Shown here piece by piece: positions 46,325-64,000 of a stretch of 64,000 nt of DNA. Position 1 is the first letter of the stretch, and every line of letters begins with the position of its first letter. The notes beneath the pieces were generated by a model. The model was given only the letters and a program-made list of their open reading frames with translations, was not told where the DNA came from and did not search any database. Location of the stretch: assembly GCF_041248615.1 (NCBI RefSeq), contig NZ_CP158426.1; one strand, written 5' to 3'. The DNA is from Escherichia coli. GTDB taxonomy: Bacteria; Pseudomonadota; Gammaproteobacteria; Enterobacterales; Enterobacteriaceae. Made by a program: the position numbers and the translations under genes.

Positions 46325-46514
46325 CTGTAGATCTCCCATAAGCATAATTGATAAGAATAGCTAAAGTTTGCTCAGGGAAATGGCGAAGGGAATGCTAATG
46401 ATCAGAAATGTTGGCAAGCGTCACAGAATTTTTCTCATCTTAAACTGTTCTGACCAGTGGATTAGCATGTCTTAAGGTGGTTTTGTGAATGATTATCGTG
46501 CTAGCGATCATGGG

Positions 46515-47368
46515 TTAGTTCTGCGGATTCAACGCGCTAAGGATAAAATCCACCATCTGTTCGCGATAAACATCGCCGTGACGATCGGAAAAAGCATCAA
46601 TGTGTTCGCCATCCGGGATTAGGATCAACCGTTTTGGCTCTTTTGCCAGGCTATACAACTTTTCGCTGTGCTGCCATGGGATAACGTGATCAGCTTTACC
46701 GTGAATGAGTAAAAGCGGGATCGGGCTGACGCTGGCGATGTAATTTTCGCCGCTGTAACTCTCATCAAGTAAGTAGCCACTGCCGGGGATCATCTGGTTG
46801 GCGATGGTCGCATAAGAGGCAAATGTGGAGTCGAGGATCACCGCACGTATGCCTTCACGATCACCCTGACCAATAACATCCAGAATATTCGCCCCGCCAA
46901 TACTCTGCCCGAACAGCACCAGCCGTTGTGGGTTTACATCACTGCGATGGCGCACCACATTGATGGCACTTTGCGTATCGTCCAGCAATCCGGCCTGGGA
47001 CGGCGTGCCTTTTGATTTACCAAACCCGCGATAATCAAACATAAAAACGTTGAAATTACGCTCGGGTAACCAACTGACCAGCGGCCAGTGGGCGGACATA
47101 TTTCCGGCATTGCCGTGAGCATGAATAATGGTGGCAATGGCATTTTCAGCGGGGCCAGTTGCAGAAGGGATAAACCAACCATGTAGGCGAGTGCCATCTT
47201 TAGCGGTGAATTCTACTGATTCGGCTGACCAGGGATCGGGGCCGTAGATTTTGTCGTCAGGGTAATAGAAAAATTGATGGCGATGCGCGGTATTAAATAA
47301 ATGCAGAAGGCAACAACAAAGAGAATAAACAGAATTTTGAGAACGCGTTTGTTCACTGGCAGCGCCAT
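46515..47368 (-). pseudogene. yfhR: alpha/beta-hydrolase (S9-peptidase-like) gene with a -1 frameshift in a homopolymer
   Basis: N-terminal signal-anchor ORF (MALPVNKRVLKILFILFVVAFCIYLIP..., part of track ORF 47213..47395) and the hydrolase body (...FYYPDDKIYGPDPW..., GQSIGG) are in different frames. Adding one A to the A5 run at 47269-47273 joins them into a single 284-aa ORF. Confidence 0.6.
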
Positions 47369-47512
47369 AACCTTTCCTTGCGACTTCTTTATCATCCATT
47401 AATCGGGGAAAGATGGTGGGAGAGTGGCGAAAGAAAGTAAAGCGGTGAGGAAGTATTTCGGAATAGCGCCTGAAAGGCGAGGGCGGGTGAGTGACATCAC
47501 CCGCCAGAGTCA

Positions 47513-48316
47513 TTAACGCTTCAGGGCGTCGCTTAACTCGTCACGCATGTTCGCCAGCATGGCTTTAACAACGCGCGGGTTACCAGCAACGATGTTACCG
47601 GTCAGCATGTAGTTATGACCACCGGTGAAGTCGCTGACGATGCCGCCCGCTTCACGAACCAGCAGCTCGCCTGCCGCGAAATCCCACGGACGCAGACCGA
47701 TTTCAAAGAAACCGTCAACGCGACCCGCAGCAACGTAAGCCAGATCCAGCGCCGCAGAACCGGTACGACGGAAGTCTGCACATTCGTTGAACAGTTTGCC
47801 GACGATGTTGATGTAGGTGGTGGCGTACTGTTTTGCTTTGAACGGGAAGCCGGTCGCCAGAATAGTACCGTCGAGATCGCGAGCGGTGCTGCCGCGCAGA
47901 CGGTAGCCGTTCAGCTGTGCGCCCTGACCGCGAGTGGCGGTGAACAGTTCGTTACGCATAGGATCGTAAACCACAGCAACTTCAGTGCGGCCTTTGATAC
48001 GAACGGCGATAGATACCGCGAAGTGCGGCAGACGTTTGATAAAGTTGGTAGTGCCATCCAGTGGATCGATAACCCATTGAACATCCTGATCAGTACCTTC
48101 AAGTTCACCGCTTTCTTCGGTGATGATGGTGTGCTGTGGGTAAGATTTACGAATCGTGTCGATAATCACCGCTTCGGCAGCTTTATCTACGTTGGTCACG
48201 AAGTCGTTACTGCCTTTCTGGCTCGCTTCTACAGCGTCCGGGGTTTCATAGTTTTTGGCAATTAAATTACCCGCCTTGCGCGCTGCGCGCACGGCGATGT
48301 TCAGCATCGGATGCAT
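47513..48316 (-). CDS. suhB: inositol monophosphatase
   Basis: 267 aa, MHPMLNIAVRAARKAGNLI...; IMPase motifs DPLDGT and WDFAAG. Confidence 0.96.
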   Translation of the reverse strand: MHPMLNIAVRAARKAGNLIAKNYETPDAVEASQKGSNDFVTNVDKAAEAVIIDTIRKSYPQHTIITEESGELEGTDQDVQWVIDPLDGTTNFIKRLPHFAVSIAVRIKGRTEVAVVYDPMRNELFTATRGQGAQLNGYRLRGSTARDLDGTILATGFPFKAKQYATTYINIVGKLFNECADFRRTGSAALDLAYVAAGRVDGFFEIGLRPWDFAAGELLVREAGGIVSDFTGGHNYMLTGNIVAGNPRVVKAMLANMRDELSDALKR

Positions 48317-48434
48317 CGGTCTCTCTCACTGGATGTTAAAGAACGGGAAAACGGCGCAGAGTATAGCAGCGAGATCGGCATCTGTCTTCGTTTTATGATA
48401 AGATGCGCGAATAATCTTTAGACGAAGAAAGACA

Positions 48435-49175
48435 ATGCTGCAAAATATTCGAATTGTGCTGGTGGAGACGTCACACACCGGCAATATGGGTTCTGTTGCC
48501 CGTGCCATGAAAACAATGGGATTAACCAATCTGTGGTTGGTTAATCCACTGGTGAAACCTGACTCCCAGGCGATTGCCCTGGCAGCAGGGGCCAGCGATG
48601 TGATTGGTAATGCTCATATCGTCGATACGCTCGACGAAGCGTTAGCCGGTTGTAGCCTGGTGGTGGGCACCAGCGCACGCTCCCGCACGCTGCCGTGGCC
48701 GATGCTCGACCCGCGCGAATGCGGTCTGAAAAGCGTCGCTGAAGCGGCAAATACCCCGGTGGCGCTGGTTTTTGGTCGCGAGCGCGTCGGCTTGACCAAT
48801 GAAGAGTTGCAGAAATGCCATTATCATGTCGCGATTGCCGCTAACCCGGAATACAGTTCGCTGAACCTGGCGATGGCGGTTCAGGTTATTGCCTATGAAG
48901 TGCGCATGGCCTGGCTTGCAACTCAGGAAAATGGTGAGCAGGTCGAGCATGAAGAGACGCCGTATCCGCTGGTCGATGATCTGGAGCGTTTTTATGGTCA
49001 TCTGGAACAAACGCTGCTGGCAACCGGTTTTATCCGTGAAAACCATCCGGGGCAGGTGATGAATAAATTGCGTCGTTTGTTTACCCGTGCGCGCCCGGAA
49101 AGCCAGGAATTGAATATCCTGCGCGGGATTCTGGCTTCTATAGAGCAGCAGAATAAAGGTAATAAGGCCGAATAA
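48435..49175 (+). CDS. trmJ: tRNA (cytidine/uridine-2'-O)-methyltransferase
   Basis: 246 aa, [29 protein letters not shown]...; SpoU/TrmH fold. Confidence 0.93.
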
Positions 49176-49183
49176 TAGTGGTT

Positions 49184-49270
49184 GCCTGATGCGACGCTTA
49201 ACGCGTCTTATCAGGCCTACAATGTACAGAACCGTAGGTCGGATAAGGTGTTCACACCGCATCCGACAAC
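49184..49270. repeat. BIME: two REP palindromic units in opposite orientation
   Basis: gcctgatgcgacgcttaacgcgtcttatcaggcctac and gtaggtcggataaggtgttcacaccgcatccgacaa. Confidence 0.65.
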
Positions 49271-49311
49271 AGGTACAAACGCCACGATAAAAAAATGGCA
49301 CTGAAGGTTAA

Positions 49312-49362
49312 ATACCCGACTAAATCAGTCAAGTAAATAGTTGACCAATTTACTCGGGAATG
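49312..49362 (+). promoter_or_regulatory. putative IscR type-1 binding sites in the iscR promoter
   Basis: atacccgactaaatcagtcaagtaaat and the adjacent atagttgaccaatttactcggg resemble the type-1 IscR motif; 80-130 bp upstream of iscR. Confidence 0.45.
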
Positions 49363-49444
49363 TCAGACTTGACCCTGCTATGCAATACCCCCACTTTTAC
49401 AATAAAAAACCCCGGGCAGGGGCGAGTTTGAGGTGAAGTAAGAC

Positions 49445-49933
49445 ATGAGACTGACATCTAAAGGGCGCTATGCCGTGACCGCAATGCTTGACGTTGCGCT
49501 CAACTCTGAAGCGGGCCCGGTACCGTTGGCTGATATTTCCGAACGTCAGGGAATTTCCCTTTCTTATCTGGAACAACTGTTTTCCCGTCTGCGTAAAAAT
49601 GGTCTGGTTTCCAGCGTACGTGGACCAGGCGGTGGTTATCTGTTAGGCAAAGATGCCAGCAGTATCGCCGTTGGCGAAGTGATTAGCGCCGTTGACGAAT
49701 CTGTAGATGCCACCCGTTGTCAGGGTAAAGGCGGCTGCCAGGGCGGCGATAAATGCCTGACCCACGCGCTGTGGCGTGATTTGAGCGACCGTCTCACCGG
49801 TTTTCTCAACAACATTACTTTAGGCGAACTGGTTAATAACCAGGAAGTGCTGGATGTGTCTGGTCGTCAGCATACTCACGACGCGCCACGCACCCGCACA
49901 CAAGACGCGATCGACGTTAAGTTACGCGCTTAA
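49445..49933 (+). CDS. iscR: Fe-S cluster regulator IscR (Rrf2 family)
   Basis: 162 aa, [20 protein letters not shown]...; three cluster-ligand Cys in [13 protein letters not shown]. Confidence 0.96.
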
Positions 49934-50044
49934 TAAAAAGTATTCAGAATCAGGCCGGAGTGTTTAACACTCCGTAAACACGGTCGTACATCCAGCCGGT
50001 AGCCTGGTTCCTTGCATTGAGTGATGTACGGAGTTTATAGAGCA

Positions 50045-51259
50045 ATGAAATTACCGATTTATCTCGACTACTCCGCAACCACGCCGGTGGACCCGCGTGT
50101 TGCCGAGAAAATGATGCAGTTTATGACGATGGACGGAACCTTTGGTAACCCGGCCTCCCGTTCTCACCGTTTCGGCTGGCAGGCTGAAGAAGCGGTAGAT
50201 ATCGCCCGTAATCAGATTGCCGATCTGGTCGGCGCTGACCCGCGTGAAATCGTCTTTACCTCTGGTGCAACCGAATCTGACAACCTGGCGATCAAAGGTG
50301 CAGCCAACTTTTATCAGAAAAAAGGCAAGCACATCATCACCAGCAAAACCGAACACAAAGCGGTACTGGATACCTGCCGTCAGCTGGAGCGCGAAGGTTT
50401 CGAAGTCACCTACCTGGCACCGCAGCGTAACGGCATTATCGACCTGAAAGAACTTGAAGCAGCGATGCGTGACGACACCATCCTCGTTTCTATCATGCAC
50501 GTGAATAACGAAATCGGCGTGGTGCAGGATATCGCGGCTATCGGCGAAATGTGCCGTGCTCGCGGCATTATCTATCACGTTGATGCAACCCAGAGCGTGG
50601 GCAAACTGCCTATCGACCTGAGCCAGTTGAAAGTTGACCTGATGTCATTCTCCGGTCACAAAATCTATGGCCCGAAAGGTATCGGTGCGCTGTATGTACG
50701 TCGTAAACCGCGCGTACGCATCGAAGCGCAAATGCACGGCGGCGGTCACGAGCGCGGTATGCGTTCCGGCACCCTGCCTGTCCACCAGATCGTCGGTATG
50801 GGCGAAGCCTATCGCATCGCAAAAGAAGAGATGGCGACCGAGATGGAACGTCTGCGCGGCCTGCGTAACCGTCTGTGGAACGGCATCAAAGATATCGAAG
50901 AAGTTTACCTGAACGGTGACCTGGAACACGGCGCGCCGAACATTCTCAACGTCAGCTTCAACTACGTTGAAGGTGAGTCGCTGATTATGGCGCTGAAAGA
51001 CCTCGCGGTTTCTTCAGGTTCCGCCTGTACGTCAGCAAGCCTCGAACCGTCCTACGTGCTGCGCGCGCTGGGGCTGAACGACGAGCTGGCACATAGCTCT
51101 ATCCGTTTCTCTTTAGGTCGTTTTACTACTGAAGAAGAGATCGACTACACCATCGAGTTAGTTCGTAAATCCATCGGTCGTCTGCGTGACCTTTCTCCGC
51201 TGTGGGAAATGTACAAGCAGGGCGTGGATCTGAACAGCATCGAATGGGCTCATCATTAA
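50045..51259 (+). CDS. iscS: cysteine desulfurase IscS
   Basis: [19 protein letters not shown]..., 404 aa; PLP lysine in [12 protein letters not shown]; active-site SSGSACTS. Confidence 0.97.
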
Positions 51260-51286
51260 TCGGTATCGGAATCAGGAGAATTTATA

Positions 51287-51673
51287 ATGGCTTACAGCGA
51301 AAAAGTTATCGACCATTACGAGAATCCGCGTAACGTGGGTTCCTTTGACAACAACGACGAGAACGTCGGCAGCGGCATGGTGGGTGCACCGGCATGTGGC
51401 GATGTGATGAAGTTGCAGATTAAAGTCAACGATGAAGGTATCATTGAAGACGCGCGTTTTAAAACTTACGGCTGCGGTTCTGCTATCGCTTCCAGCTCCC
51501 TGGTCACCGAATGGGTGAAAGGGAAGTCTCTCGACGAAGCGCAGGCGATCAAAAACACCGATATTGCTGAAGAACTTGAACTGCCGCCAGTGAAAATTCA
51601 CTGTTCTATTCTGGCAGAAGACGCGATCAAAGCCGCCATTGCGGACTATAAAAGCAAACGTGAAGCAAAATAA
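51287..51673 (+). CDS. iscU: Fe-S cluster scaffold IscU
   Basis: 128 aa; MAYSEKVIDHYENPRNVG...; conserved Cys and LPPVK. Confidence 0.97.
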   Translation: MAYSEKVIDHYENPRNVGSFDNNDENVGSGMVGAPACGDVMKLQIKVNDEGIIEDARFKTYGCGSAIASSSLVTEWVKGKSLDEAQAIKNTDIAEELELPPVKIHCSILAEDAIKAAIADYKSKREAK

Positions 51674-51689
51674 GAGTTGAGGTTTGGTT

Positions 51690-52013
51690 ATGTCGATTAC
51701 ACTGAGCGACAGTGCAGCAGCGCGAGTAAATACCTTTCTGGCTAACCGTGGCAAAGGGTTTGGCCTGCGTCTGGGCGTGAGAACCTCCGGATGTTCAGGT
51801 ATGGCTTATGTACTGGAATTTGTTGACGAACCGACGCCGGAAGACATCGTGTTTGAAGACAAAGGCGTGAAAGTCGTGGTCGATGGCAAAAGCCTGCAAT
51901 TTCTGGACGGTACGCAGCTGGACTTCGTAAAAGAAGGCCTGAACGAAGGGTTTAAATTCACCAACCCGAACGTTAAAGATGAGTGTGGTTGCGGCGAAAG
52001 CTTCCACGTTTGA
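51690..52013 (+). CDS. iscA: Fe-S cluster insertion protein IscA
   Basis: [13 protein letters not shown]..., 107 aa; C-terminal CGCGESF. Confidence 0.95.
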
Positions 52014-52108
52014 TGCGCATACCGATAACCCCACCGTGGTCGCCTGCGCGTGGGGTTTGTTTTACCTGATTCGCCGTTATCGCGGCGGATCGCAGCCCTG
52101 AGAATGTT

Positions 52109-52624
52109 ATGGATTACTTCACCCTCTTTGGCTTGCCTGCCCGTTATCAACTCGATACCCAGGCGCTGAGCCTGCGTTTTCAGGATCTACAACGTCAGTA
52201 TCATCCTGATAAATTCGCCAGCGGAAGCCAGGCGGAACAACTCGCCGCCGTACAGCAATCTGCAACCATTAACCAGGCCTGGCAAACGCTGCGTCATCCG
52301 TTAATGCGCGCGGAATATTTGCTTTCTTTGCACGGTTTTGATCTCGCCAGCGAGCAGCATACTGTGCGCGATACCGCGTTCCTGATGGAACAGCTGGAGC
52401 TGCGCGAAGAACTGGACGAGATCGAACAGGCGAAAGATGAAGCGCGGCTGGAAAGCTTTATCAAACGTGTGAAAAAGATGTTTGATACCCGCCATCAGTT
52501 GATGGTTGAACAGTTAGACAACGAGACGTGGGACGCGGCGGCGGATACCGTGCGTAAGCTGCGTTTTCTCGATAAACTGCGAAGCAGTGCCGAACAACTC
52601 GAAGAAAAACTGCTCGATTTTTAA
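52109..52624 (+). CDS. hscB: co-chaperone HscB (J-domain)
   Basis: 171 aa; J-domain with HPD (QRQYHPDKF). Confidence 0.95.
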
Positions 52625-52640
52625 TTTCTGGAAGCTAAAC

Positions 52641-54491
52641 ATGGCCTTATTACAAATTAGTGAACCTGGTTTGAGTGCTGCGCCGCATCAGCGTCGTCTG
52701 GCGGCCGGTATTGACCTAGGCACAACCAACTCGCTGGTGGCGACAGTGCGCAGCGGTCAGGCCGAAACGTTAGCCGACCATGAAGGCCGTCACCTGCTGC
52801 CGTCTGTTGTTCACTATCAACAGCAAGGGCATTCGGTGGGTTATGACGCACGTACTAACGCAGCGCTTGACACCGCCAACACCATTAGTTCTGTTAAACG
52901 CCTGATGGGGCGCTCGCTGGCTGATATCCAGCAACGCTATCCGCATCTGCCTTATCAATTCCAGGCCAGCGAAAACGGCCTGCCGATGATTGAAACGGCG
53001 GCGGGGCTGCTGAACCCGGTGCGCGTTTCTGCGGACATCCTCAAAGCACTGGCGGCGCGGGCAACTGAAGCCCTGGCAGGCGAGCTGGATGGTGTCGTTA
53101 TCACCGTTCCGGCGTACTTTGACGATGCCCAGCGTCAGGGCACCAAAGACGCGGCGCGTCTGGCGGGGTTGCATGTTCTGCGCTTACTTAACGAACCGAC
53201 CGCTGCGGCTATCGCCTACGGGCTGGATTCCGGTCAGGAAGGCGTGATCGCTGTTTATGACCTCGGCGGCGGGACGTTTGATATTTCCATTCTGCGCTTA
53301 AGTCGCGGCGTGTTTGAAGTGCTGGCGACCGGCGGTGATTCCGCGCTCGGCGGCGATGATTTCGACCATCTGCTGGCGGATTATATTCGCGAGCAGGCGG
53401 GCATTCCTGATCGTAGCGATAACCGCGTTCAGCGTGAACTGCTGGATGCCGCCATTGCAGCCAAAATCGCGCTGAGCGATGCGGACTCCGTGACCGTTAA
53501 CGTTGCGGGCTGGCAGGGCGAAATCAGCCGTGAACAATTCAATGAACTGATCGCGCCACTGGTAAAACGAACCTTACTGGCTTGTCGTCGCGCGCTGAAA
53601 GACGCGGGTGTAGAAGCTGATGAAGTGCTGGAAGTGGTGATGGTTGGCGGTTCTACCCGCGTGCCGCTGGTGCGTGAACGGGTGGGCGAATTTTTCGGTC
53701 GTCCACCGCTGACTTCTATCGACCCGGATAAAGTCGTCGCTATTGGCGCGGCGATTCAGGCGGATATTCTGGTGGGTAACAAGCCGGACAGCGAAATGCT
53801 GTTGCTGGATGTGATCCCGCTGTCGCTGGGCCTCGAGACCATGGGCGGCCTGGTGGAGAAAGTGATCCCGCGTAATACCACGATTCCGGTGGCCCGCGCC
53901 CAGGATTTCACCACCTTTAAAGATGGTCAGACGGCAATGTCTATCCATGTGATGCAGGGTGAACGTGAACTGGTGCAGGACTGCCGCTCGCTGGCGCGTT
54001 TTGCACTGCGTGGTATCCCGGCGCTACCGGCTGGCGGCGCGCATATTCGCGTAACGTTCCAGGTCGATGCCGACGGTCTTTTGAGCGTGACGGCGATGGA
54101 GAAATCCACCGGCGTTGAGGCGTCTATTCAGGTCAAACCGTCTTATGGTCTGACCGATAGCGAAATCGCTTCGATGATCAAAGACTCAATGAGCTATGCC
54201 GAGCAGGACGTAAAAGCCCGTATGCTGGCAGAACAAAAAGTAGAAGCGGCGCGTGTGCTGGAAAGTCTGCACGGCGCGCTGGCTGCTGATGCCGCGCTGT
54301 TAAGCACCGCAGAGCGTCAGGTCATTGACGATGCTGCCGCTCACCTGAGTGAAGTGGCGCAGGGCGATGATGTTGACGCTATCGAACAAGCGATTAAAAA
54401 CGTAGACAAACAAACCCAGGATTTCGCCGCTCGCCGCATGGACCAGTCGGTTCGTCGTGCGCTGAAAGGCCATTCCGTGGACGAGGTTTAA
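52641..54491 (+). CDS. hscA: Hsp70-type chaperone HscA
   Basis: [10 protein letters not shown]..., 616 aa; Hsp70 signatures GIDLGTTNS and DLGGGTFD. Confidence 0.96.
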
Positions 54492-54492
54492 T

Positions 54493-54828
54493 ATGCCAAA
54501 GATTGTTATTTTGCCTCATCAGGATCTCTGCCCTGATGGCGCTGTTCTGGAAGCGAATAGTGGTGAAACCATTCTCGACGTTGCGCTGCGTAACGGTATC
54601 GAGATTGAACACGCCTGTGAAAAATCCTGTGCTTGCACCACCTGCCACTGCATCGTTCGCGAAGGTTTTGACTCGCTGCCGGAAAGCTCAGAGCAGGAAG
54701 ACGACATGCTGGACAAAGCCTGGGGACTGGAGCCGGAAAGCCGTTTAAGCTGCCAGGCGCGCGTTACCGACGAAGATTTAGTGGTCGAAATCCCGCGTTA
54801 CACTATCAACCATGCGCGTGAGCATTAA
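54493..54828 (+). CDS. fdx: [2Fe-2S] ferredoxin
   Basis: 111 aa; adrenodoxin-type Cys ligands ([12 protein letters not shown] ... C). Confidence 0.95.
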
Positions 54829-54839
54829 CAGAGGTTAGT

Positions 54840-55040
54840 ATGGGACTTAAGTGGACCGATAGCCGCGAAATTGGCGAAGCACTGTACGATGCGTATCCCG
54901 ATCTTGATCCGAAAACGGTTCGATTCACCGATATGCATCAGTGGATTTGCGATCTGGAAGATTTCGACGACGACCCGCAGGCATCCAACGAGAAAATCCT
55001 CGAAGCGATTTTGTTAGTCTGGCTGGACGAAGCCGAATAA
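54840..55040 (+). CDS. iscX: IscX (YfhJ), Fe-S assembly accessory protein
   Basis: 66-aa acidic protein [24 protein letters not shown]... Confidence 0.93.
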
Positions 55041-55284
55041 TTTCCGCGTCATGCTTCACGCCGCAGATGCGTTGGCTGCGCTCGTTCACCCCAGTCACAT
55101 AGTTATCTATGCTCCTGGGGCTTCACTCACTTGCCGCGTGATTCGGCCTTTTGGCCTCACCCCTTTGGGGCCAGCGCAAGCGCTGTTCAAAACGCAATGC
55201 GTTTTGTCCTGCAACGCGAATCATTTAGCGGAAAAATCCTGGGGCTGCCAACTGGCGGCCCTTTTACAAAGAAGGATAACTAAA

Positions 55285-56568
55285 ATGACAGAAGCGATGA
55301 AGATTACCCTCTCTACCCAACCTGCCGACGCGCGCTGGGGAGAAAAAGCGACTTACAGCATTAATAATGATGGCATTACCCTGCATTTGAACGGGGCAGA
55401 CGATCTGGGGCTGATCCAGCGTGCGGCGCGCAAGATTGACGGTCTGGGCATCAAGCATGTTCAGTTAAGCGGTGAAGACTGGGATGCGGATCGCTGCTGG
55501 GCATTCTGGCAAGGTTACAAAGCCCCGAAAGGCACACGTAAAGTGGAGTGGCCGGATCTGGACGATGCCCAACGGCAGGAACTGGATAACCGCCTGATGA
55601 TCATCGACTGGGTGCGTGACACCATCAACGCACCGGCGGAAGAACTGGGGCCATCGCAACTGGCACAGCGTGCTGTTGATCTGATCAGCAATGTCGCGGG
55701 CGATCGTGTGACTTACCGGATCACCAAAGGCGAAGATCTGCGTGATCAAGGTTATATGGGGCTGCACACGGTCGGACGCGGTTCAGAACGTTCTCCGGTA
55801 TTGCTGGCGCTGGATTACAACCCGACTGGCGATAAAGAAGCGCCAGTGTACGCGTGCCTGGTTGGTAAAGGCATCACCTTTGATTCCGGCGGCTACAGTA
55901 TCAAACAGACCGCATTTATGGACTCGATGAAGTCGGACATGGGCGGCGCGGCAACGGTTACCGGGGCGCTGGCGTTTGCCATTACGCGCGGACTGAACAA
56001 GCGCGTGAAGCTGTTCCTCTGCTGTGCGGATAACCTGATCAGCGGCAACGCGTTCAAACTGGGCGATATTATTACCTATCGCAACGGTAAAAAAGTTGAA
56101 GTGATGAACACTGATGCGGAAGGGCGTCTGGTGCTGGCCGATGGCCTGATTGATGCCAGTGCGCAGAAACCGGAACTGATCATTGATGCGGCGACCCTCA
56201 CCGGGGCGGCGAAAACTGCGCTGGGTAATGATTATCACGCGCTGTTCAGTTTTGACGATGCGCTTGCCGGTCGCTTGCTGGCGAGTGCCGCGCAGGAGAA
56301 TGAACCGTTCTGGCGTCTGCCGCTGGCGGAGTTCCACCGCAGCCAGCTGCCGTCTAACTTTGCCGAACTGAACAATACCGGAAGCGCGGCGTACCCGGCA
56401 GGCGCGAGCACGGCGGCGGGCTTCCTGTCGCACTTTGTTGAGAACTATCAGCAAGGCTGGCTGCATATCGACTGCTCGGCGACTTACCGTAAAGCGCCGG
56501 TTGAACAGTGGTCTGCGGGTGCTACGGGACTTGGTGTGCGCACGATTGCTAATCTGTTAACGGCGTAA
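55285..56568 (+). CDS. pepB: peptidase B (M17 leucyl aminopeptidase family)
   Basis: [21 protein letters not shown]..., 427 aa; M17 motif NTDAEGRL; track ORF is extended by 78 codons. Confidence 0.93.
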
Positions 56569-56577
56569 ACGTCTTAT

Positions 56578-56652
56578 TTGGCCTACAAAATTGCGAAAAT
56601 CCAATAGATTGAGATTCCCTTGTAGGCCTGATAAGCGTAGCGCATCAGGCAC
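56578..56652. repeat. REP/BIME-like palindromic element
   Basis: gtaggcctgataagcgtagcgcatcaggcac REP plus flanking inverted ggcctacaa / ttgtaggcc arms. Confidence 0.5.
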
Positions 56653-56686
56653 TTGTGCCCCGAACGTTGAATGAATTGTGGTTCTT

Positions 56687-57463
56687 ATGTCCGAAACAAA
56701 AAACGAACTTGAAGATCTGCTGGAAAAAGCAGCAACCGAACCGGCGCACCGCCCGGCCTTTTTCCGTACTCTACTGGAATCCACCGTCTGGGTGCCGGGT
56801 ACGGCGGCGCAGGGCGAGGCTGTGGTTGAAGATAGCGCGCTTGATTTACAGCACTGGGAAAAAGAAGACGGCACCAGCGTCATTCCTTTTTTTACCTCGT
56901 TAGAAGCACTTCAACAGGCGGTTGAAGACGAACAGGCATTTGTCGTAATGCCCGTTCGCACATTGTTTGAGATGACCCTTGGCGAAACGCTCTTCCTTAA
57001 TGCCAAACTGCCAACCGGTAAAGAATTTATGCCGCGTGAAATCAGTTTGTTGATTGGTGAAGAAGGAAATCCGCTGAGCAGCCAGGAAGTACTGGAGGGC
57101 GGTGAATCGCTGATATTATCGGAAGTCGCAGAGCCGCCAGCACAAATGATTGATTCACTCACCACCTTATTTAAAACTATTAAGCCGGTGAAGCGTGCTT
57201 TTATTTGTTCAATTAAAGAGAACGAAGAGGCACAGCCTAATTTACTTATTGGCATTGAAGCCGATGGTGATATCGAAGAAATTATTCAGGCGGCGGGAAG
57301 TGTAGCGACCGATACATTACCTGGCGATGAACCCATCGATATTTGTCAGGTGAAAAAAGGGGAAAAAGGAATTAGCCACTTTATTACCGAACATATTGTG
57401 CCATTCTATGAACGTCGCTGGGGTGGTTTTTTGCGTGACTTTAAACAGAACCGGATAATCTAA
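56687..57463 (+). CDS. sseB: SseB-family protein (enhanced serine sensitivity protein)
   Basis: MSETKNELEDLLEKAATEPAHRPAFFRTLL..., 258 aa; position between pepB and sseA. Confidence 0.88.
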   Translation: MSETKNELEDLLEKAATEPAHRPAFFRTLLESTVWVPGTAAQGEAVVEDSALDLQHWEKEDGTSVIPFFTSLEALQQAVEDEQAFVVMPVRTLFEMTLGETLFLNAKLPTGKEFMPREISLLIGEEGNPLSSQEVLEGGESLILSEVAEPPAQMIDSLTTLFKTIKPVKRAFICSIKENEEAQPNLLIGIEADGDIEEIIQAAGSVATDTLPGDEPIDICQVKKGEKGISHFITEHIVPFYERRWGGFLRDFKQNRII

Positions 57464-57808
57464 AATATGCCGCCCCAAAGGGCGGCATTCGGGCTTACCT
57501 GCTGTTCTGAAGGTTGTTAACCACCAGTAAATTGTTGCCGGAGAGACTCCGGTTATTATTTACCTCGGTTAACAGCGCACCAGAAACAATAAGTACGATA
57601 CAAAAGCACCGTATCTTCATTGTGCGGTCCATGCGAAGACCGCATCACGACAGCACCACTGGCGATATTGCCGCGATAGCAAGCGCTGTGAAACACCTGC
57701 ATTTACGGCCATGGAACATCCTTTCCTTAAGCCAGCGCCCGTTTGCGAGACGGCGGAAAGGGCCGGTGTCGATAATACGCTAAATAAACAATGATTACTC
57801 TCTTTCGC

Positions 57809-58957
57809 TGTGTAAGTTCACAGAGATATTGCAATTACCTCCGGATAAGTAAGGGGAGATTGCACTATGCAAATGCAGCATCTGATGGTTGGCTATCCTA
57901 AGTACTACCAAACGGCCGATTATGCGTTGAGGCTTTCAGTGATGGCTGATACAGCAACAATGAGAATGAAGGCTCTGCACTTCTGGGATAAACACGGTAT
58001 TTCTGCAGCTTCTGAAGCCTTTGGCGTGTCCTGCCGCACGCTTTACTGGTGGCGTCAGTTACTGAACAAGGGAGGACCTGAGGGGCTAATCCCGCACAGT
58101 AAGGCACCTCTGGTGCGACGAAAAAAGCACTGGCATCCCGATGTGCTGAAAGAGATTCGACGGCTGCGGACAGAGCTGCCGAACCTCGGTAAAGAGCAGA
58201 TTTTTGTTCGCCTGAAGCCCTGGTGCGAACAGCGCTATCTGGCCTGTCCAAGTGTTTCCACCATCGGCAGAATGATCGCTGCCGCACACGATAAAATGCG
58301 AATGATACCTGTGCGTCTGGGCTCGCGGGGGAAGGCACTGCTTGTCAAAAAGCGGTCTGCCAAACCCCGCAGACCAAAGCACTACCGCCCGGTAAAGACA
58401 GGTGAGCTCATTGGGATGGACGCCATTGAGCTCAGAATGGGCGAACTGCGTCGCTATGTCATCACCATGATCGACGAATGCAGCAATTACGCGCTGGCGC
58501 TGGCTGTACCGTCGCTCAACAGTGATATCGTCAATCACTTCTTCAGCCGTGCAGCCCGGCTGTTCCCGGTCGGTATCAGTCAGATAATCACAGATAACGG
58601 AAAAGAGTTCCTGGGAAACTTCAACAAAACGCTGCAGGAAGCCGCTATCAAACACCTCTGGACCTATCCCTACACGCCAAAAATGAACGCTATCTGTGAA
58701 CGTTTTAACCGGACGTTAAGAGAGCAGTTTATTGAATTTAATGAGATTTTACTCTTTGAAGATCTGGCGCTATTTAATCAGAAGCTGGGGGAATATCTGG
58801 TACTGTATAACAGCAAAAGGCCCCATAAGGCGCTCGCACTAATGACGCCCGTGGAATATATTTTAAGAGAGAACAAAAATTGCAATATGTGGTGGACCCA
58901 TACATTCGCTTGACAAAAAGAGAGTTACTGGCGAGTATTGCTTTGCTGTGAAGCACC
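57809..58957 (+). mobile_element. IS481-family insertion sequence (boundaries approximate)
   Basis: Single DDE-transposase ORF flanked by gapped imperfect inverted repeats sharing TTCACAG and GCAAT blocks (left about 57811-57842, right about 58929-58955); outer ends and target duplication are not resolved. Confidence 0.45.
57867..58913 (+). CDS. IS481-family DDE transposase (HTH plus integrase-core/rve domain)
   Basis: 348-aa ORF; N-terminal HTH (FGVSCRTLYWWRQ); catalytic residues in GMDAIEL, ITDNGKEF and ICERFNRTL; C-terminal YNSKRPHKAL motif typical of IS481/IS3 rve domains. True start may be an internal Met. Confidence 0.8.
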   Translation: MQMQHLMVGYPKYYQTADYALRLSVMADTATMRMKALHFWDKHGISAASEAFGVSCRTLYWWRQLLNKGGPEGLIPHSKAPLVRRKKHWHPDVLKEIRRLRTELPNLGKEQIFVRLKPWCEQRYLACPSVSTIGRMIAAAHDKMRMIPVRLGSRGKALLVKKRSAKPRRPKHYRPVKTGELIGMDAIELRMGELRRYVITMIDECSNYALALAVPSLNSDIVNHFFSRAARLFPVGISQIITDNGKEFLGNFNKTLQEAAIKHLWTYPYTPKMNAICERFNRTLREQFIEFNEILLFEDLALFNQKLGEYLVLYNSKRPHKALALMTPVEYILRENKNCNMWWTHTFA

Positions 58958-59016
58958 TGCGTTGCTCCGACAACACAAGTCAACCTGCTGGAAAGGCCGC
59001 GAACCAGACCAGCAAT

Positions 59017-59047
59017 AAAAAACCGCCAAATTCGGCGGTTTTTTATT
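59017..59047. terminator. bidirectional rho-independent terminator at the 3' end of sseA
   Basis: aaaaaaccgccaaattcggcggttttttatt: perfect stem with U-runs on both strands. Confidence 0.7.
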
Positions 59048-59060
59048 GCCTGTAAAAAGC

Positions 59061-59906
59061 TTATTTCAATGGCTCAACCGGTAAATCTGCCCGTGCGCCC
59101 CATTCACTCCATGCGCCGTCGTACAGTTTCACGTTTGGCACATCCAGCGTCGCGAGTGCCAACAAAACCACGGCTGCCGTTACACCAGAACCGCAACTGA
59201 CGATAATAGGTTTGTCATAACTTACGCCGCGACCAAAAAATATCGCATCCAGTTCATCGGTCGTTTTTAGTTCGCCTTCACGTACCAGTTCTGTCCACGG
59301 AACGTTAAACGCGCCGGGAATATGTCCGCGACGTAAACCTGGGCGAGGTTCATCAACTTCTGCGTTAAAACGTGCAGCCGGGCGGGCATCAATAATTTGC
59401 GCCGTATTTTCATGGCTTGCCAATAACACATCGGTGACTTTCACCACGGCTTCAGGATTAAACGTGGCGTTAAACTCTCCTTCCGGCAGCTCTACTGCAC
59501 CTTCTTCTAACAGCAGATCATCGCGCTGCCAGCCTGCAAGTCCACCCCCCAGAATCGACACTTTCTCTACACCAAAGGTGCGCAGCATCCACCATGCTCG
59601 TGGGGCTGAGAAAAGATTACCTTCGTCATAGACAATCAGGTGCTTATCCTGGTTAACGCCTAATTCACGCATCGCCACGGCGAACGTTTCCGGGCGCGGC
59701 AGCATGTGCGGAAGCGGGGAAGTGTGATCAGAAAGCGCTTCGATATCAAAAAACACTGCGCCGGGAATATGTCCATTCAGATACTCCTGAGCAACGTTAC
59801 GATCTTCCTGTCCAGGCGACGCCATGCGGGCATCAATAATCTGAATTTCCGGGTCATCAATATGTTCGGCGAGCCAGTCGGCTCCTACAAACCATGTCGT
59901 GGACAT
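59061..59906 (-). CDS. sseA: 3-mercaptopyruvate sulfurtransferase (tandem rhodanese domains)
   Basis: MSTTWFVGADWLAEHIDDPEIQIIDARMASP..., 281 aa; active-site Cys in SCGSGVTA; track ORF is extended by 53 codons. Confidence 0.93.
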   Translation of the reverse strand: MSTTWFVGADWLAEHIDDPEIQIIDARMASPGQEDRNVAQEYLNGHIPGAVFFDIEALSDHTSPLPHMLPRPETFAVAMRELGVNQDKHLIVYDEGNLFSAPRAWWMLRTFGVEKVSILGGGLAGWQRDDLLLEEGAVELPEGEFNATFNPEAVVKVTDVLLASHENTAQIIDARPAARFNAEVDEPRPGLRRGHIPGAFNVPWTELVREGELKTTDELDAIFFGRGVSYDKPIIVSCGSGVTAAVVLLALATLDVPNVKLYDGAWSEWGARADLPVEPLK

Positions 59907-60112
59907 AGGCATCTCCATTTTTGCCGGGGTTAGGCTAAATTGTCGGATGTTTAGTGAAAGGCGACAAGCAAAAGAGGCTGATTTGGCTGTCTGAGCCACA
60001 ATTCTCACTAAAATTCGGATTGTATGGGCGTGATACTGAATTACATAACGTAAATTCTCACGCATAATAATTATTCGACGTTGCTAACGGGCCATTGTGG
60101 CAGGGATGAAAA

Positions 60113-63100
60113 ATGAAAAAGTTACGCGTAGCCGCCTGCATGCTAATGCTGGCGCTGGCAGGGTGCGACAACAACGATAACGCGCCAACAGCGGTGAAAA
60201 AAGATGCGCCTTCTGAAGTTACTAAAGCGGCTTCTTCAGAAAACGTGAGTTCAGCAAAACTTTCCGCGCCGGAGCGACAAAAACTGGCCCAACAGAGTGC
60301 CGGTAAGGCGCTGACATTGCTGGATCTCTCTGAAGTTCAACTTGATGGCGCAGCCACGCTGGTGCTGACGTTCTCCATTCCTCTCGACCCGGATCAGGAT
60401 TTCTCACGCGTTATCCATGTCGTCGATAAGAAAAGCGGCAAAGTGGATGGTGCCTGGGAGCTGTCAGATAATCTTAAAGAGTTGCGTTTACGCCACCTCG
60501 AACCGAAACGTGATTTGATCGTCACTATTGGCAAGGAGGTCAAAGCACTCAACAACGCAACCTTCAGTAAAGATTACGAAAAAACTATAACTACCCGCGA
60601 TATCCAACCCAGCGTCGGTTTTGCCAGCCGTGGCTCGTTGTTACCCGGTAAAGTTATTGAAGGGCTGCCGGTAATGGCGCTCAACGTTAACAATGTCGAT
60701 GTTAACTTCTTCCGTGTTAAGCCAGAATCTCTGCCTGCATTCATTAGCCAATGGGAATACCGCAATTCGCTGGCGAACTGGCAGTCTGAAAAACTGCTGC
60801 AGATGGCGGATCTGGTTTATACCGGACGGTTTGATCTCATTCCTGCGCGTAACACCCGTGAAAAATTATTGCTGCCGCTGGGCGATATCAAACCGCTTCA
60901 GCAGGCAGGCGTGTATCTGGCTGTGATGAATCAGGCTGGACGTTACGATTACAGTAATCCAGCGACGCTGTTTACGTTAAGTGATATCGGCGTTTCAGCT
61001 CACCGTTATCACAATCGTCTGGATATCTTTATCCAAAGTCTGGAAAACGGCGCGGCCCAGCAAGGAATAGAAGTCTCTTTATTAAATGAGAAAGGGCAGA
61101 CTCTGACTCAGGCAACCAGTGATGCTCAGGGGCATGTGCAGCTGGAAAATGATAAAAACGCGGCATTACTGCTGGCGCGTAAAGACGGTCAGACAACGCT
61201 ACTCGATTTAAAACTTCCGGCGCTGGACTTAGCAGAATTTAACATTGCTGGCGCGCCAGGCTATAGCAAACAGTTTTTCATGTTTGGCCCGCGCGATCTT
61301 TATCGCCCTGGTGAAACAGTCATCCTCAATGGTTTACTGCGTGATGCAGATGGTAAAGCATTGCCCGATCAACCCATCAAGTTAGACGTGATTAAACCCG
61401 ACGGGCAGGTACTCAGGAGCGTCGTTAGTCAGCCGGAGAATGGCCTCTACCACTTTACCTGGCCACTCGATAGCAATGCGGCAACCGGTATGTGGCATAT
61501 TCGCGCTAACACGGGCGATAACCAGTACCGGATGTGGGATTTCCACGTCGAAGATTTTATGCCAGAGCGCATGGCGCTGAATCTGACCGGTGAGAAAACC
61601 CCGCTAACGCCGAAAAATGAAGTGAAATTCTCCGTGGTGGGGTACTACCTGTATGGTGCGCCTGCTAATGGTAATACTTTGCAAGGGCAACTTTTCCTGC
61701 GCCCACTGCGTGAAGCTGTGTCAGCCTTACCTGGTTTCGAATTCGGCGATATAGCTGCCGAAAATCTTTCCCGCACGCTGGATGAAGTTCAGTTGACGCT
61801 GGATGATAAAGGGCGTGGCGAAGTTTCTACAGAAAGCCAGTGGAAGGAAACGCATTCCCCATTGCAGGTTATTTTCCAGGGTAGTTTGCTGGAATCGGGC
61901 GGTCGCCCGGTGACGCGCCGCGCTGAGCAGGCTATCTGGCCTGCCGATGCATTGCCGGGGATCCGTCCGCAGTTCGCCTCGAAATCGGTTTACGATTATC
62001 GCACTGACAGCACGGTGAAACAGCCCATTGTTGATGAAGGCAGTAACGCCGCTTTTGACATCGTTTATAGCGATGCGCAAGGCGTGAAAAAAGCCGTGTC
62101 GGGCTTGCAGGTGCGCCTGATTCGCGAACGCCGCGATTACTACTGGAACTGGTCAGAAGATGAAGGCTGGCAATCACAGTTTGATCAAAAAGATCTGATT
62201 GAAAATGAACAAACTCTGGATCTGAAAGCGGACGAAACCGGCAAGGTCAGTTTCCCGGTAGAGTGGGGCGCTTATCGTCTGGAAGTCAAAGCGCCGAATG
62301 AAGCGGTCAGTAGTGTGCGTTTCTGGGCTGGCTATAGCTGGCAGGACAACAGCGACGGGAGCGGTGCCGTGCGACCCGACCGTGTCACGCTGAAACTGGA
62401 TAAAGCCAGTTATCGCCCTGGCGATACCATTAAGTTGCATATTGCCGCGCCAACGGCGGGTAAAGGTTATGCGATGGTCGAGTCCAGTGAAGGGCCGCTG
62501 TGGTGGCAAGAGATTGATGTTCCGGCTCAAGGGCTGGATCTGACGATTCCGGTCGATAAAACCTGGAATCGTCATGATCTGTATTTAAGTACGCTGGTGG
62601 TACGTCCTGGCGATAAATCTCGCTCCGCGACGCCAAAACGCGCGGTTGGGGTGTTGCATCTGCCGCTTGGTGATGAAAACCGTCGCCTCGATCTGGCGCT
62701 GGAAACCCCCACCCAAATGCGCCCCAATCAGCCATTAACCGTGAAAATTAAAGCCAGCAATAAAAACGGTGAGATGCCAAAACAGGTGAATGTGCTGGTG
62801 TCTGCCGTTGATAGCGGTGTGCTAAATATTACTGATTACGTTACCCCCGATCCGTGGCAGGCGTTCTTTGGTCAGAAACGCTATGGTGCAGACATTTACG
62901 ATATTTACGGTCAGGTCATTGAAGGTCAGGGGCGTCTGGCAGCTCTGCGTTTTGGTGGCGATGGTGATGAGCTGAAACGTGGTGGTAAACCGCCGGTCAA
63001 TCACGTCAAAATTGTCGCGCAGCAGGCGCTGCCGGTAACGCTCAACGAACAGGGTGAAGGCTCGGTTACACTGCCGATTGGTGATTTTAACGGTGAATTG

Positions 63101-64000
63101 CGCGTCATGGCGCAAGCCTGGACGGCAGATGACTTCGGTAGCAACGAAAGCAAAGTGATAGTTGCCGCACCGGTGATTGCTGAACTGAACATGCCGCGCT
63201 TTATGGCGAGTGGCGATACCTCGCGTCTGACGCTGGATATCACTAATCTTACCGATAAACCGCAAAAACTGAACGTTGCCCTGACCGCCAGTGGTTTGCT
63301 TGAACTGGTTAGCAACTCTCCCGCACCTGTTGAATTAGCGCCAGGTGTGCGTACTACGCTGTTTATCCCGGTGCGAGCATTGCAAGGTTATGGCGATGGA
63401 GAAATTCAGGCCACCATTAGCGGGTTAGCGTTACCGGGTGAAACCGTTGCCGATCAGCATAAGCAGTGGAAAATCGGCGTCCGTCCAGCGTTCCCGGCAC
63501 AAACGGTTAATTACGGTACGGCGTTGCAGCCTGGTGAAACCTGGGCGCTCCCGGCGGATGGATTGCAAAACTTCTCGCCTGTTACGCTGCAAGGTCAGCT
63601 ATTGTTGAGCGGCAAACCACCGCTGAACATCGCACGTTATATCAAAGAGTTAAAAGCGTATCCGTACGGCTGTCTTGAGCAAACCGCCAGCGGCCTGTTC
63701 CCGTCACTTTATACCAATGCAGCCCAACTGCAGGCGTTGGGCATCAAAGGCGATAGTGATGAGAAACGCCGTGCATCGGTCGATATCGGCATTTCCCGTT
63801 TGCTGCAAATGCAACGTGATAACGGCGGCTTTGCGCTGTGGGATAAAAACGGTGACGAAGAGTACTGGCTGACGGCTTACGTGATGGATTTCCTGGTCCG
63901 CGCAGGCGAACAGGGTTACAGCGTGCCGACGGACGCCATTAACCGGGGTAATGAGCGTCTGCTGCGCTATTTACAAGATCCGGGCATGATATCGATCCCG
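60113..64000 (+). CDS. yfhM: alpha-2-macroglobulin-family lipoprotein, 5' partial (runs off the window)
   Basis: MKKLRVAACMLMLALAGCDNNDN... with lipobox LAGC; open reading frame continues uninterrupted to position 64000, which is why it is absent from the ORF track. Confidence 0.88.
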   Translation, partial: MKKLRVAACMLMLALAGCDNNDNAPTAVKKDAPSEVTKAASSENVSSAKLSAPERQKLAQQSAGKALTLLDLSEVQLDGAATLVLTFSIPLDPDQDFSRVIHVVDKKSGKVDGAWELSDNLKELRLRHLEPKRDLIVTIGKEVKALNNATFSKDYEKTITTRDIQPSVGFASRGSLLPGKVIEGLPVMALNVNNVDVNFFRVKPESLPAFISQWEYRNSLANWQSEKLLQMADLVYTGRFDLIPARNTREKLLLPLGDIKPLQQAGVYLAVMNQAGRYDYSNPATLFTLSDIGVSAHRYHNRLDIFIQSLENGAAQQGIEVSLLNEKGQTLTQATSDAQGHVQLENDKNAALLLARKDGQTTLLDLKLPALDLAEFNIAGAPGYSKQFFMFGPRDLYRPGETVILNGLLRDADGKALPDQPIKLDVIKPDGQVLRSVVSQPENGLYHFTWPLDSNAATGMWHIRANTGDNQYRMWDFHVEDFMPERMALNLTGEKTPLTPKNEVKFSVVGYYLYGAPANGNTLQGQLFLRPLREAVSALPGFEFGDIAAENLSRTLDEVQLTLDDKGRGEVSTESQWKETHSPLQVIFQGSLLESGGRPVTRRAEQAIWPADALPGIRPQFASKSVYDYRTDSTVKQPIVDEGSNAAFDIVYSDAQGVKKAVSGLQVRLIRERRDYYWNWSEDEGWQSQFDQKDLIENEQTLDLKADETGKVSFPVEWGAYRLEVKAPNEAVSSVRFWAGYSWQDNSDGSGAVRPDRVTLKLDKASYRPGDTIKLHIAAPTAGKGYAMVESSEGPLWWQEIDVPAQGLDLTIPVDKTWNRHDLYLSTLVVRPGDKSRSATPKRAVGVLHLPLGDENRRLDLALETPTQMRPNQPLTVKIKASNKNGEMPKQVNVLVSAVDSGVLNITDYVTPDPWQAFFGQKRYGADIYDIYGQVIEGQGRLAALRFGGDGDELKRGGKPPVNHVKIVAQQALPVTLNEQGEGSVTLPIGDFNGELRVMAQAWTADDFGSNESKVIVAAPVIAELNMPRFMASGDTSRLTLDITNLTDKPQKLNVALTASGLLELVSNSPAPVELAPGVRTTLFIPVRALQGYGDGEIQATISGLALPGETVADQHKQWKIGVRPAFPAQTVNYGTALQPGETWALPADGLQNFSPVTLQGQLLLSGKPPLNIARYIKELKAYPYGCLEQTASGLFPSLYTNAAQLQALGIKGDSDEKRRASVDIGISRLLQMQRDNGGFALWDKNGDEEYWLTAYVMDFLVRAGEQGYSVPTDAINRGNERLLRYLQDPGMISIP

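Follow-up and report, generated by a model that had tools for sequence, protein, structure and literature searches.

An ERIC repeat with a nested four-hairpin module in the iscX-pepB spacer of Escherichia coli

ERIC (enterobacterial repetitive intergenic consensus) elements, also termed IRUs or RU-1, are 127-bp MITE-like repeats that form one long stem-loop and are co-transcribed with neighbouring genes (PMC2229807; PMC3184786; PMC2267715), and in Yersinia they alter the stability of flanking transcripts through RNA hairpins, in a manner that depends on their orientation (PMC2229807; PMC2267715). REP/BIME, Correia/NEMIS, YPAL/RU-2, and RU-3 repeats are likewise short intergenic sequences, present in many copies, that form hairpins and are transcribed together with their neighbours (PMC2229807). 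Among catalogued small RNAs (sRNAs), AaHKsRNA22 (Rfam RF02902) was defined from RNA-seq transcripts of Aggregatibacter, and its expression as RNA was shown there only (PMC5909427). Here, we analyzed a 64,000-nucleotide stretch of Escherichia coli DNA (contig NZ_CP158426.1; hereafter, the window), in which hscA, fdx, iscX, pepB, and sseB follow one another on the plus strand, and in particular the 244-bp spacer between iscX and pepB (55041-55284), for which an initial annotation had noted a perfect 19-bp palindrome and offered three roles, namely a compound terminator of the isc operon, a protein operator, or a small structured RNA. Its boundaries (iscX stop at 55040 and pepB ATG at 55285), the lack of an open reading frame (ORF) within it, and its structured character were all upheld. 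Insertions of ~70 bp at fixed internal ERIC sites were reportedly described by Sharp in 1997 and by Cromie et al. in 1997, and the feature in the window is of this known kind, an ERIC with an internal insertion; it matches that class in its net length of 67 bp, its fixed internal site, and an insert that folds on its own. We regard it as very likely that the spacer is a nested repeat, composed of an ERIC/IRU and its internal insert, and no purpose-built control element of isc, the insert being most likely a near-neutral passenger.

The repeat occupies 194 bp (55041-55234; no strand assigned) and comprises the 127-bp element plus a net 67-bp insertion, as recognized from inverted repeats, alignment, copy number, and fold. 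Specifically, an inverted-repeat finder recovered the ERIC outer arms (55041-55066 and 55209-55234), a long-range pairing that the initial annotation had not remarked upon, and the central inverted repeat (55089-55102 and 55107-55120). The window ERIC could be aligned position by position with those at yjbF-yjbE and yajO-dxs, and once the net 67-bp insertion is subtracted its length is 127 bp, exactly that of the K-12-type allele. Its core was 86% identical to the ERIC core consensus. Across 5426 complete E. coli genomes, which also served for the allele counts given below, blastn placed relatives of the spacer at 53,413 positions in 5425 of them, with a median of 12 per genome, and all ERIC copies examined were intergenic. 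The locus thus resembles ERIC/IRU repeats in its length of 127 bp without the insert, its conserved core and arms, the roughly dozen intergenic copies per E. coli genome, the long imperfect palindrome, and its presence in some strains and absence from others, which have an intact empty site, and it differs from them by the 69-bp internal block and by drifted termini, which here read TTTCCGCG... and ...CGGAAA, not TATAC... and ...GTATA. When the empty site (GAGTGAATGAAC) was compared with the filled site (GAATAA[ERIC]AATCCTG), substitutions in the ERIC-less allele were seen to surround the junction; a TA is present at the left ERIC junction, inside the TAA stop, none was clear at the right, and no clean TA duplication was visible. 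REP/BIME-type repeats, in contrast, have no sequence similarity to the spacer, and REPs are single 35-40-bp hairpins, to which nothing here corresponds. RU-3 is also a different repeat and lies on the other side of pepB, where Delihas (2007) described it as a 103-bp repeat at the pepB 3′ side in O157:H7 (PMC2759123).

The spacer folds far better than shuffled sequence. As a 246-nt RNA it reached -98.3 kcal/mol, whereas 200 shuffles gave -74.2 ± 5.0 and none of them folded as well (z -4.9), and over the whole element, ERIC and insert together, folds ranged from -95 to -98 kcal/mol with z from -4.9 to -8, the element alone giving -95 kcal/mol (z -8) on the minus strand. On the plus strand, the spacer fold was -98 kcal/mol with the insert versus -65 kcal/mol without it. 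Separately, the minus strand of the ERIC core returned sub-threshold Rfam matches to V_AS5 of Vibrio (31.6 bits) and CssrA of Shigella (25.5 bits), at 55076-55140 and 54974-55095, respectively, which suggests that these two sRNA families were built on ERIC-like repeats.

Three spacer alleles were present among the E. coli genomes. The ERIC-less allele, of 57/58 bp, was found in 2137 of the 5426 (39%), and the K-12-type allele with a plain ERIC, of 177 bp, in ~2860 (~53%, by difference), there being 3288 records with a best match of at least 95% identity. The 244-bp allele with ERIC and insert was carried by 424-436 genomes (~8%), 424 of them matching over the full 244 bp by blastn, and most genomes matched as 177 bp in two pieces. 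Strain CFSAN061763 was among the insert-bearing ones, with a spacer 100% identical to that of the window. Contigs encoding an identical IscX protein carried 244-, 177-, or 57/58-bp spacers. In pairwise alignment, GCCGC-CT-TCCTGC of the K-12-type allele corresponds to GCCGC-[69 bp, 55138-55206]-TCCTGC of the window, and outside of this indel the two differed at one of ~210 aligned bases, with identical ERIC arms. The expectation that the 19-bp palindrome would be conserved in close relatives was not borne out, as it is missing at the locus in ~92% of E. coli genomes. With the ERIC missing from 39% of E. coli genomes and the module from another ~53%, the insert is dispensable, and it is most likely a near-neutral passenger.

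Escherichia whittamii carries an insert-bearing allele at the same locus. Between the two species, we counted 0-4 differences per 100 bp from the 3′ end of hscA to the 5′ end of pepB, and the spacer (~3 per 100 bp) was as conserved as the flanking coding sequence. Introgression from E. whittamii was considered and set aside, since the spacer does not stand out and divergence is uniformly low. The insert is single-copy in E. coli, with no second full copy that could have been the donor. Given that the arms of the ERIC-bearing alleles are identical, that there is no E. coli donor copy, and that E. whittamii shares the allele at ordinary divergence, the allele data are better explained by recombination or gene conversion with other ERICs than by a new site-specific insertion.

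The insert itself is a nested four-hairpin module of 69 bp (55138-55206, minus strand) that replaces the CT of the plain ERIC right arm. It was delimited by the indel relative to the K-12-type allele, by its match to RF02902 (47.2 bits), and by two models, R1, which includes the first hairpin (65.3 bits, 55138-55212), and R2, which omits it (34.2 bits). Read 5′ to 3′ on the minus strand, the order is hpA, AA, hpB, hpC, GA, hpD, and GAAUCAC. The first hairpin, hpA (55188-55206), is the 19-bp palindrome, CAAAACGCA-A-TGCGTTTTG with 9-bp arms, which a repeat finder reproduced as initially annotated and which as hpA is written CAAAACGCA-N-UGCGUUUUG. It is followed by hpB (CAGCGC-UU-GCGCUG, 55172-55185), which had been overlooked as the DNA hairpin CAGCGC-AA-GCGCTG, and by hpC (GCCCC-AAA-GGGGU, 55159-55171), which is closed by a G-U pair on the minus strand only, the plus strand having A-C at this position. 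The last hairpin, hpD (GGCC-AAAA-GGCC, 55145-55156), precedes the GAAUCAC tail (55138-55144). Both small hairpins of the initial annotation are thus present, with CCCC-TTT-GGGG at 55160-55170, though GGCC-TTTT-GGCC, at 55145-55156, lies one base before the position first annotated. Folded alone, the insert gave -30.2 kcal/mol on the minus strand and -28.5 kcal/mol on the plus strand. In the 64-kb window, there were 12 perfect hairpins with arms of at least 9 bp, compared with ~1.2 in Markov simulations; the 19-bp palindrome is non-random, because it belongs to a repeat family, yet as one of ~11 such sites in 64 kb it is not singular.

To find other copies, we scanned for the palindrome in one genome per species and then in metagenomes. 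Homologues at the same ERIC site were present in Intestinirhabdus alba (three copies), Serratia sp. DD3, and Dickeya oryzae, in addition to the E. whittamii copy at the same locus. The exchange of 69 bp for 2 bp between GCCGC and TCCTGC occurred at the same site and in the same orientation in ERICs from four further genera or species, and the junction sequence GCCGC/GTGATTC...GTTTTG/TCCTGC (slashes mark the insert ends) was common to ERICs of I. alba, Serratia sp. DD3, and Dickeya. A second fixed internal ERIC site, after GGTGAGCGA, was occupied in I. alba (locus L072) and E. whittamii (locus L023). Multi-copy module units were found in Aggregatibacter actinomycetemcomitans and Mannheimia haemolytica. 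In every copy, read as on the window minus strand, the plan was the same: hpA, 2 nt, hpB, hpC, GA, hpD, and GA(A/G)U(A/C)A(C/U). At other loci, the orientation of the module relative to neighbouring ORFs, assigned by a crude stop-to-stop ORF call, was mixed and followed no rule, as is expected of a passenger in a mobile repeat.

Several further observations accompanied these scans. In E. whittamii, a second ERIC lies directly after sseB (L023, 3260-3428; corresponding to ~57463 of the window, from which it is absent); half of its core is deleted, and its module occupies the other of the two internal sites and has a compensatory variant of hpA, CAAATCCGC-ATGGA-GCGGATTTG. Degenerate relatives within E. 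coli were located between rfaJ and waaO (L002, 430-590) and upstream of uhpA in O25b:H4-type strains (L003, 425-580). The rfaJ-waaO and uhpA variants consist of an ERIC left end, a degenerate module, and an ERIC right end, the central ERIC palindrome being missing, and two I. alba loci (L069 and L070) are alike. Palindrome matches in Prevotella conceptionensis, Hoylesella, and related metagenome-assembled genomes (MAGs) were discarded, as they belong to dozens of tandem arrays with a ~22-bp unit (GTGCTAAATGCAGTGCGTTTTG-like) and show no other similarity to the module, and most single matches in unrelated phyla look like ordinary hairpins. In beta-proteobacterial MAGs (L015, L096, and L079), the palindrome lies within other multi-hairpin repeats; the best R2 score there, the 10.8 bits of a decoy, is directly beside the L079 palindrome. 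Distant members of the family may therefore exist outside the Gammaproteobacteria.

Pairing in the module was evaluated across 22 distinct copies. A plain MAFFT alignment put paired bases in inconsistent columns and was replaced by an alignment made by hand, N-padded, and fitted to the hairpins by construction, in which 99.5% of cells were paired and 18 of the 31 pairs changed on both sides. None of 500 shuffles reached this, and slid controls were 29-43% paired. By hairpin, five of seven pairs changed on both sides in hpB and nine of ten in hpD, and covariation in this alignment extended to hpB, hpC, and hpD. Within it hpA is invariant, its copies having been gathered via an exact-palindrome search; among copies detected by model and not by pattern, the upper stem of hpA covaried too, with the compensatory variants CAAAUCCGC...GCGGAUUUG and CAAAUCAG...CUGAUUUG. 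Fully complementary stems of differing sequence are hard to explain otherwise than by a conserved fold, despite the fitted alignment.

These variants bear directly on the proposal that the palindrome is an operator bound by a dimeric regulator, for which its perfect dyad symmetry and the recurrence of the identical 19-mer in many genomes could be cited. We reject this reading because the compensatory changes conserve the fold and not the DNA sequence: the upper stem varies by compensatory substitutions in paralogous copies, that is, in members found without the pattern. Moreover, the palindrome always opens a strand-specific unit of four hairpins, the RtT units of E. coli (see below) have a different, weak hairpin at its position, and the site is missing at the locus from the great majority of genomes. 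On present evidence, with the compensatory stem changes and this absence taken together, an operator is excluded, and we would give it next to no credence.

The fold also has a strand. All wobble cells were G-U or U-G in the minus-strand reading (14, with no A-C), GNRA loops (GCAA, GUAA, and GAAA) occur on the window-minus strand, and the minus strand was lower in energy for 15 of the 16 copies folded on both strands. These three properties lead us to conclude that the fold under selection is that of the strand antisense to isc-pepB. In keeping with this strand, the minus strand matched RF02902 over its full length (55142-55214; 47.2 bits, gathering score 39.8; E 6.9e-7 over 3 kb searched), with all four AaHKsRNA22 hairpins present in the same order. 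The Aggregatibacter and Mannheimia copies scored 68 and 96 bits, respectively, against the same model. The Pasteurellaceae unit differs from that of the window in being part of another repeat, with flanks CCTTCC.../...GGAAGG and a longer fourth hairpin, whereas the window unit is inside an ERIC. A small structured RNA was accordingly the closest of the three roles first offered, in that the RF02902 gathering score is reached and the hairpins covary, but the folded strand is the minus strand, the insert lies within an ERIC, and it is absent from ~92% of E. coli genomes.

That the insert is an independent minus-strand sRNA gene, a homologue of AaHKsRNA22 antisense to the isc-pepB mRNA, would accord with the gathering-level score, with wobble pairs and GNRA loops that mark the fold of this strand as selected, and with the origin of the Aggregatibacter family in RNA-seq transcripts (PMC5909427). 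We nevertheless judge such a gene improbable. A promoter and terminator consensus scan of 54500-55800 yielded no site on either strand, the module is embedded in an ERIC arm and is not free-standing, and most genomes of the species do without it; additionally, copies linked to tRNA genes in other bacteria are evidently co-transcribed with the tRNAs and have no promoter of their own.

The tRNA-linked copies came from the metagenome scan and adjoin tRNA-Arg(ACG/UCG) and tRNA-Ser(GGA/GCU) genes of other Gammaproteobacteria. Some of them are tandem 169-bp units that scored 51-56 bits against the Rfam RtT model (RF00391) and contain the identical palindrome. In eight tRNA-linked loci (L101, L103, L111, L120, L016, L123, L113, and L107), the module splits the T-loop-like sequence of a partial tRNA copy (...GGUUCGA/module/GAAUC...), and the partial copies lie beside intact tRNA-Arg or tRNA-Ser genes, as the RtT units of E. 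coli follow tRNA-Tyr. The latter, four units in the tyrT-tyrV-rttR region of E. coli K-12, scored 133-137 bits against RF00391, and each consists of a tRNA-Tyr T-arm (GGUUCGA), ~68 nt of hairpins, and then AUCCUUCCCCCACCACCA.

The cores of RtT (E. coli rttR, the 178-bp tyrT-tyrV repeats) and of the insert resemble each other after GA, each having a hairpin, 2-4 nt, a CG-rich 6-7-bp hairpin, a CCC(C)-RAA-GGG(G) hairpin, GA, a further hairpin, and GA(A/G)UAAU/C. The likeness is seen when RtT unit 4 (AACGUUGCCACAGGCAACGGCCCGAAGGGUGAGG...GAAUAAU) is set against the insert (AACAGCGCUUGCGCUGGCCCCAAAGGGGUGAGG...GAAUCAC), and the two have the same strand polarity. The insert differs from RtT in lacking a tRNA-like closing stem and a CCA-bearing 3′ end, its flanks being the ERIC arms GCAGGA.../...GCGGCAAG, and E. 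coli RtT lacks a strong palindrome, with a different, weak hairpin at the hpA position. The RtT model (gathering score 45 bits) gave no match at E <= 10 in window positions 54000-57000, and there were no tRNA genes in 45000-64000.

Model R1, with hpA, missed the E. coli RtT units at E <= 10, since this model is dominated by the palindrome, whose invariance is an artefact of the way in which copies were gathered. Model R2 was trained on insert-type and tRNA-linked copies, without hpA and without any RtT sequence, and was run with search filters off. It recovered each of the four RtT units of E. coli, correctly placed and on the correct strand, with 19.4-21.0 bits (E 2e-6 to 9e-6), while the best decoys in ~153 kb reached 14.5 and 10.8 bits. 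A weak R2 match in the window at 1747-1791, antisense inside a 318-aa ORF, was taken as chance. The insert is related to the RtT core and is no RtT RNA itself, and shared ancestry of the two is likely, though not proven. More broadly, we propose, as a conjecture that we hold at somewhat less than even confidence, that the ~69-nt blocks interrupting ERICs are no random filler and represent a single ancient RNA module, strand-specific and built of four hairpins, that is also the core of RtT-type units and of the Pasteurellaceae sRNA22 repeats. In the RtT-type units it would split a T-loop-like UUCGA/GAAUC in partial tRNA copies beside tRNA-Tyr, tRNA-Arg, and tRNA-Ser genes, and it would be a cassette repeatedly captured by other structured repeats or inserted into them after GA. 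No link among ERIC insertions, RtT, and AaHKsRNA22 was found in the literature searched, which did not take in the text of the 1997 notes on ERIC insertions, and the RtT link is modestly new.

The question of how the spacer behaves in transcripts starts from the hairpin downstream of the ERIC. This terminator-like hairpin on the plus strand, GGGCUGCC-AACU-GGCGGCCC followed by UUUU (55242-55265, with the hairpin itself at 55242-55261), lies outside the ERIC, folds with -21.7 kcal/mol (z -4.7), and is the sole terminator-like feature of the spacer, its T-run being below the scan requirement of at least five. In the ERIC-less allele, the homologous hairpin is GGGCUGCC-UGGG-GGUAGCCC, followed by a longer U-rich tail (UUUUGCUGUU) directly upstream of the pepB ribosome-binding site. 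The element at 55242-55265 is the ancestral iscX-distal hairpin.

The initial suggestion of a compound intrinsic terminator of the isc operon, formed by the GC-rich hairpin cluster, draws on the several stable hairpins directly after the last isc gene and on this nearby hairpin with its UUUU. The hairpins of the insert, however, are followed by TCA, CCA, TT, and TCC and have no T-run, and the terminator scan was empty on both strands. Furthermore, iscR mutants of Yersinia derepress pepB and sseB along with the isc genes, and the same paper cites this for E. coli (PMC4055776), a pattern consistent with transcription that reads through the spacer. The downstream hairpin is retained in all E. coli genomes, whereas the insert is missing from most of them and the entire ERIC from 39%. 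The absence of a U-tract in the insert, the empty scan, and the co-regulation of isc and pepB leave the compound terminator unsupported, and we consider it very improbable.

Co-regulation also underlies the most credible of the competing explanations, namely a selected cis-acting RNA element of the isc-pepB-sseB mRNA, in which the ERIC stem, the module, and the downstream hairpin would tune the processing and stability of the iscX 3′ end or the translation of pepB. The spacer is inside a co-regulated transcription unit (PMC4055776), Yersinia ERICs change the stability of flanking transcripts by orientation (PMC2229807), the plus strand folds well too, and in a comparison of E. coli with E. whittamii the spacer shows the same conservation as the coding sequence beside it. 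Additionally, the ERIC-bearing alleles allow AUCCU (55236-55240) to pair with AGGAU (55273-55277), the Shine-Dalgarno of pepB, and so to extend the hairpin at its base; the ERIC-less allele has no such pairing and leaves the Shine-Dalgarno free. Set against these points are the three alleles at high frequency within one species, the wobble pairs of the module, which become A-C mismatches on the mRNA strand, and an insert that has no specific tie to isc biology, the module being found at unrelated loci in either orientation. We therefore view a selected cis element as unlikely, and the nested repeat carried as a near-neutral passenger remains our preferred account of the spacer.

Several points weigh against the nested-repeat reading, or against its extension to RtT, in addition to the fitted construction of the hand alignment and the palindrome-based gathering of its copies. 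Near-neutrality is argued from polymorphism alone, and a strain-specific regulatory effect is possible, for example on pepB translation via the predicted AUCCU/AGGAU pairing. The Term-seq and Rend-seq data searched contained no entry for iscX/pepB transcript ends. With E. whittamii carrying an insert-bearing allele, gain and loss of the module are both possible at iscX-pepB. The Rfam RtT and RF02902 models gave no cross-match between the E. coli insert and the E. coli RtT units, and the link to RtT rests on matches of 19-21 bits with roughly calibrated E-values, to four units that are repeats of one another.

On the nested-repeat account, a 127-bp ERIC with its insert occupies 55041-55234, between the iscX stop and the older hairpin at 55242-55265, and the plus-strand spacer would be transcribed within an isc-pepB-sseB read-through mRNA. 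In that RNA, the ERIC arms would be predicted to pair into a long stem, from which the module would project as a four-hairpin side branch. Any effect on the processing or stability of the iscX/pepB junction is proposed by analogy with the Yersinia ERICs, and the insert was probably acquired or lost when ERIC copies recombined or underwent gene conversion with one another.

The neighbouring features are as follows. The iscX gene (54840-55040, plus strand; 66 aa) was assigned from the ORF list and from the iscX annotation in matching E. coli records, and its TAA stop (55038-55040) abuts the left end of the ERIC. The pepB gene (55285-56568, plus strand; 427 aa) starts with the ATG at 55285 and has the Shine-Dalgarno AAGGAU at 55272-55277. 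Further downstream, ES036/CssrF of Rfam weakly matched the pepB-sseB spacer (56569-56677) at 56587-56629, with 24.3 bits where the gathering score is 37.6, and this 100-bp stretch was the most diverged from E. whittamii, with 36 differences. Directly after sseB, a perfect hairpin with 9-bp arms, ATGCCGCCC-CAAA-GGGCGGCAT (57467-57488), is probably the sseB terminator.

We recommend that 55041-55234 be annotated as an ERIC repeat with an internal insertion. For the isc operon itself the feature has little importance, and the palindrome is no conserved control site. The three common alleles are nearly identical in the flanks compared and thus constitute a natural experiment on the effect of an ERIC, and of its insert, on a well-studied polycistronic mRNA, and the same polymorphism is a caution for ERIC-PCR typing. 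If the link to RtT is true, three separately catalogued items would become one family with clear covariation and a defined strand, from which both the function of RtT RNA and the origin of the ERIC variants could be approached.

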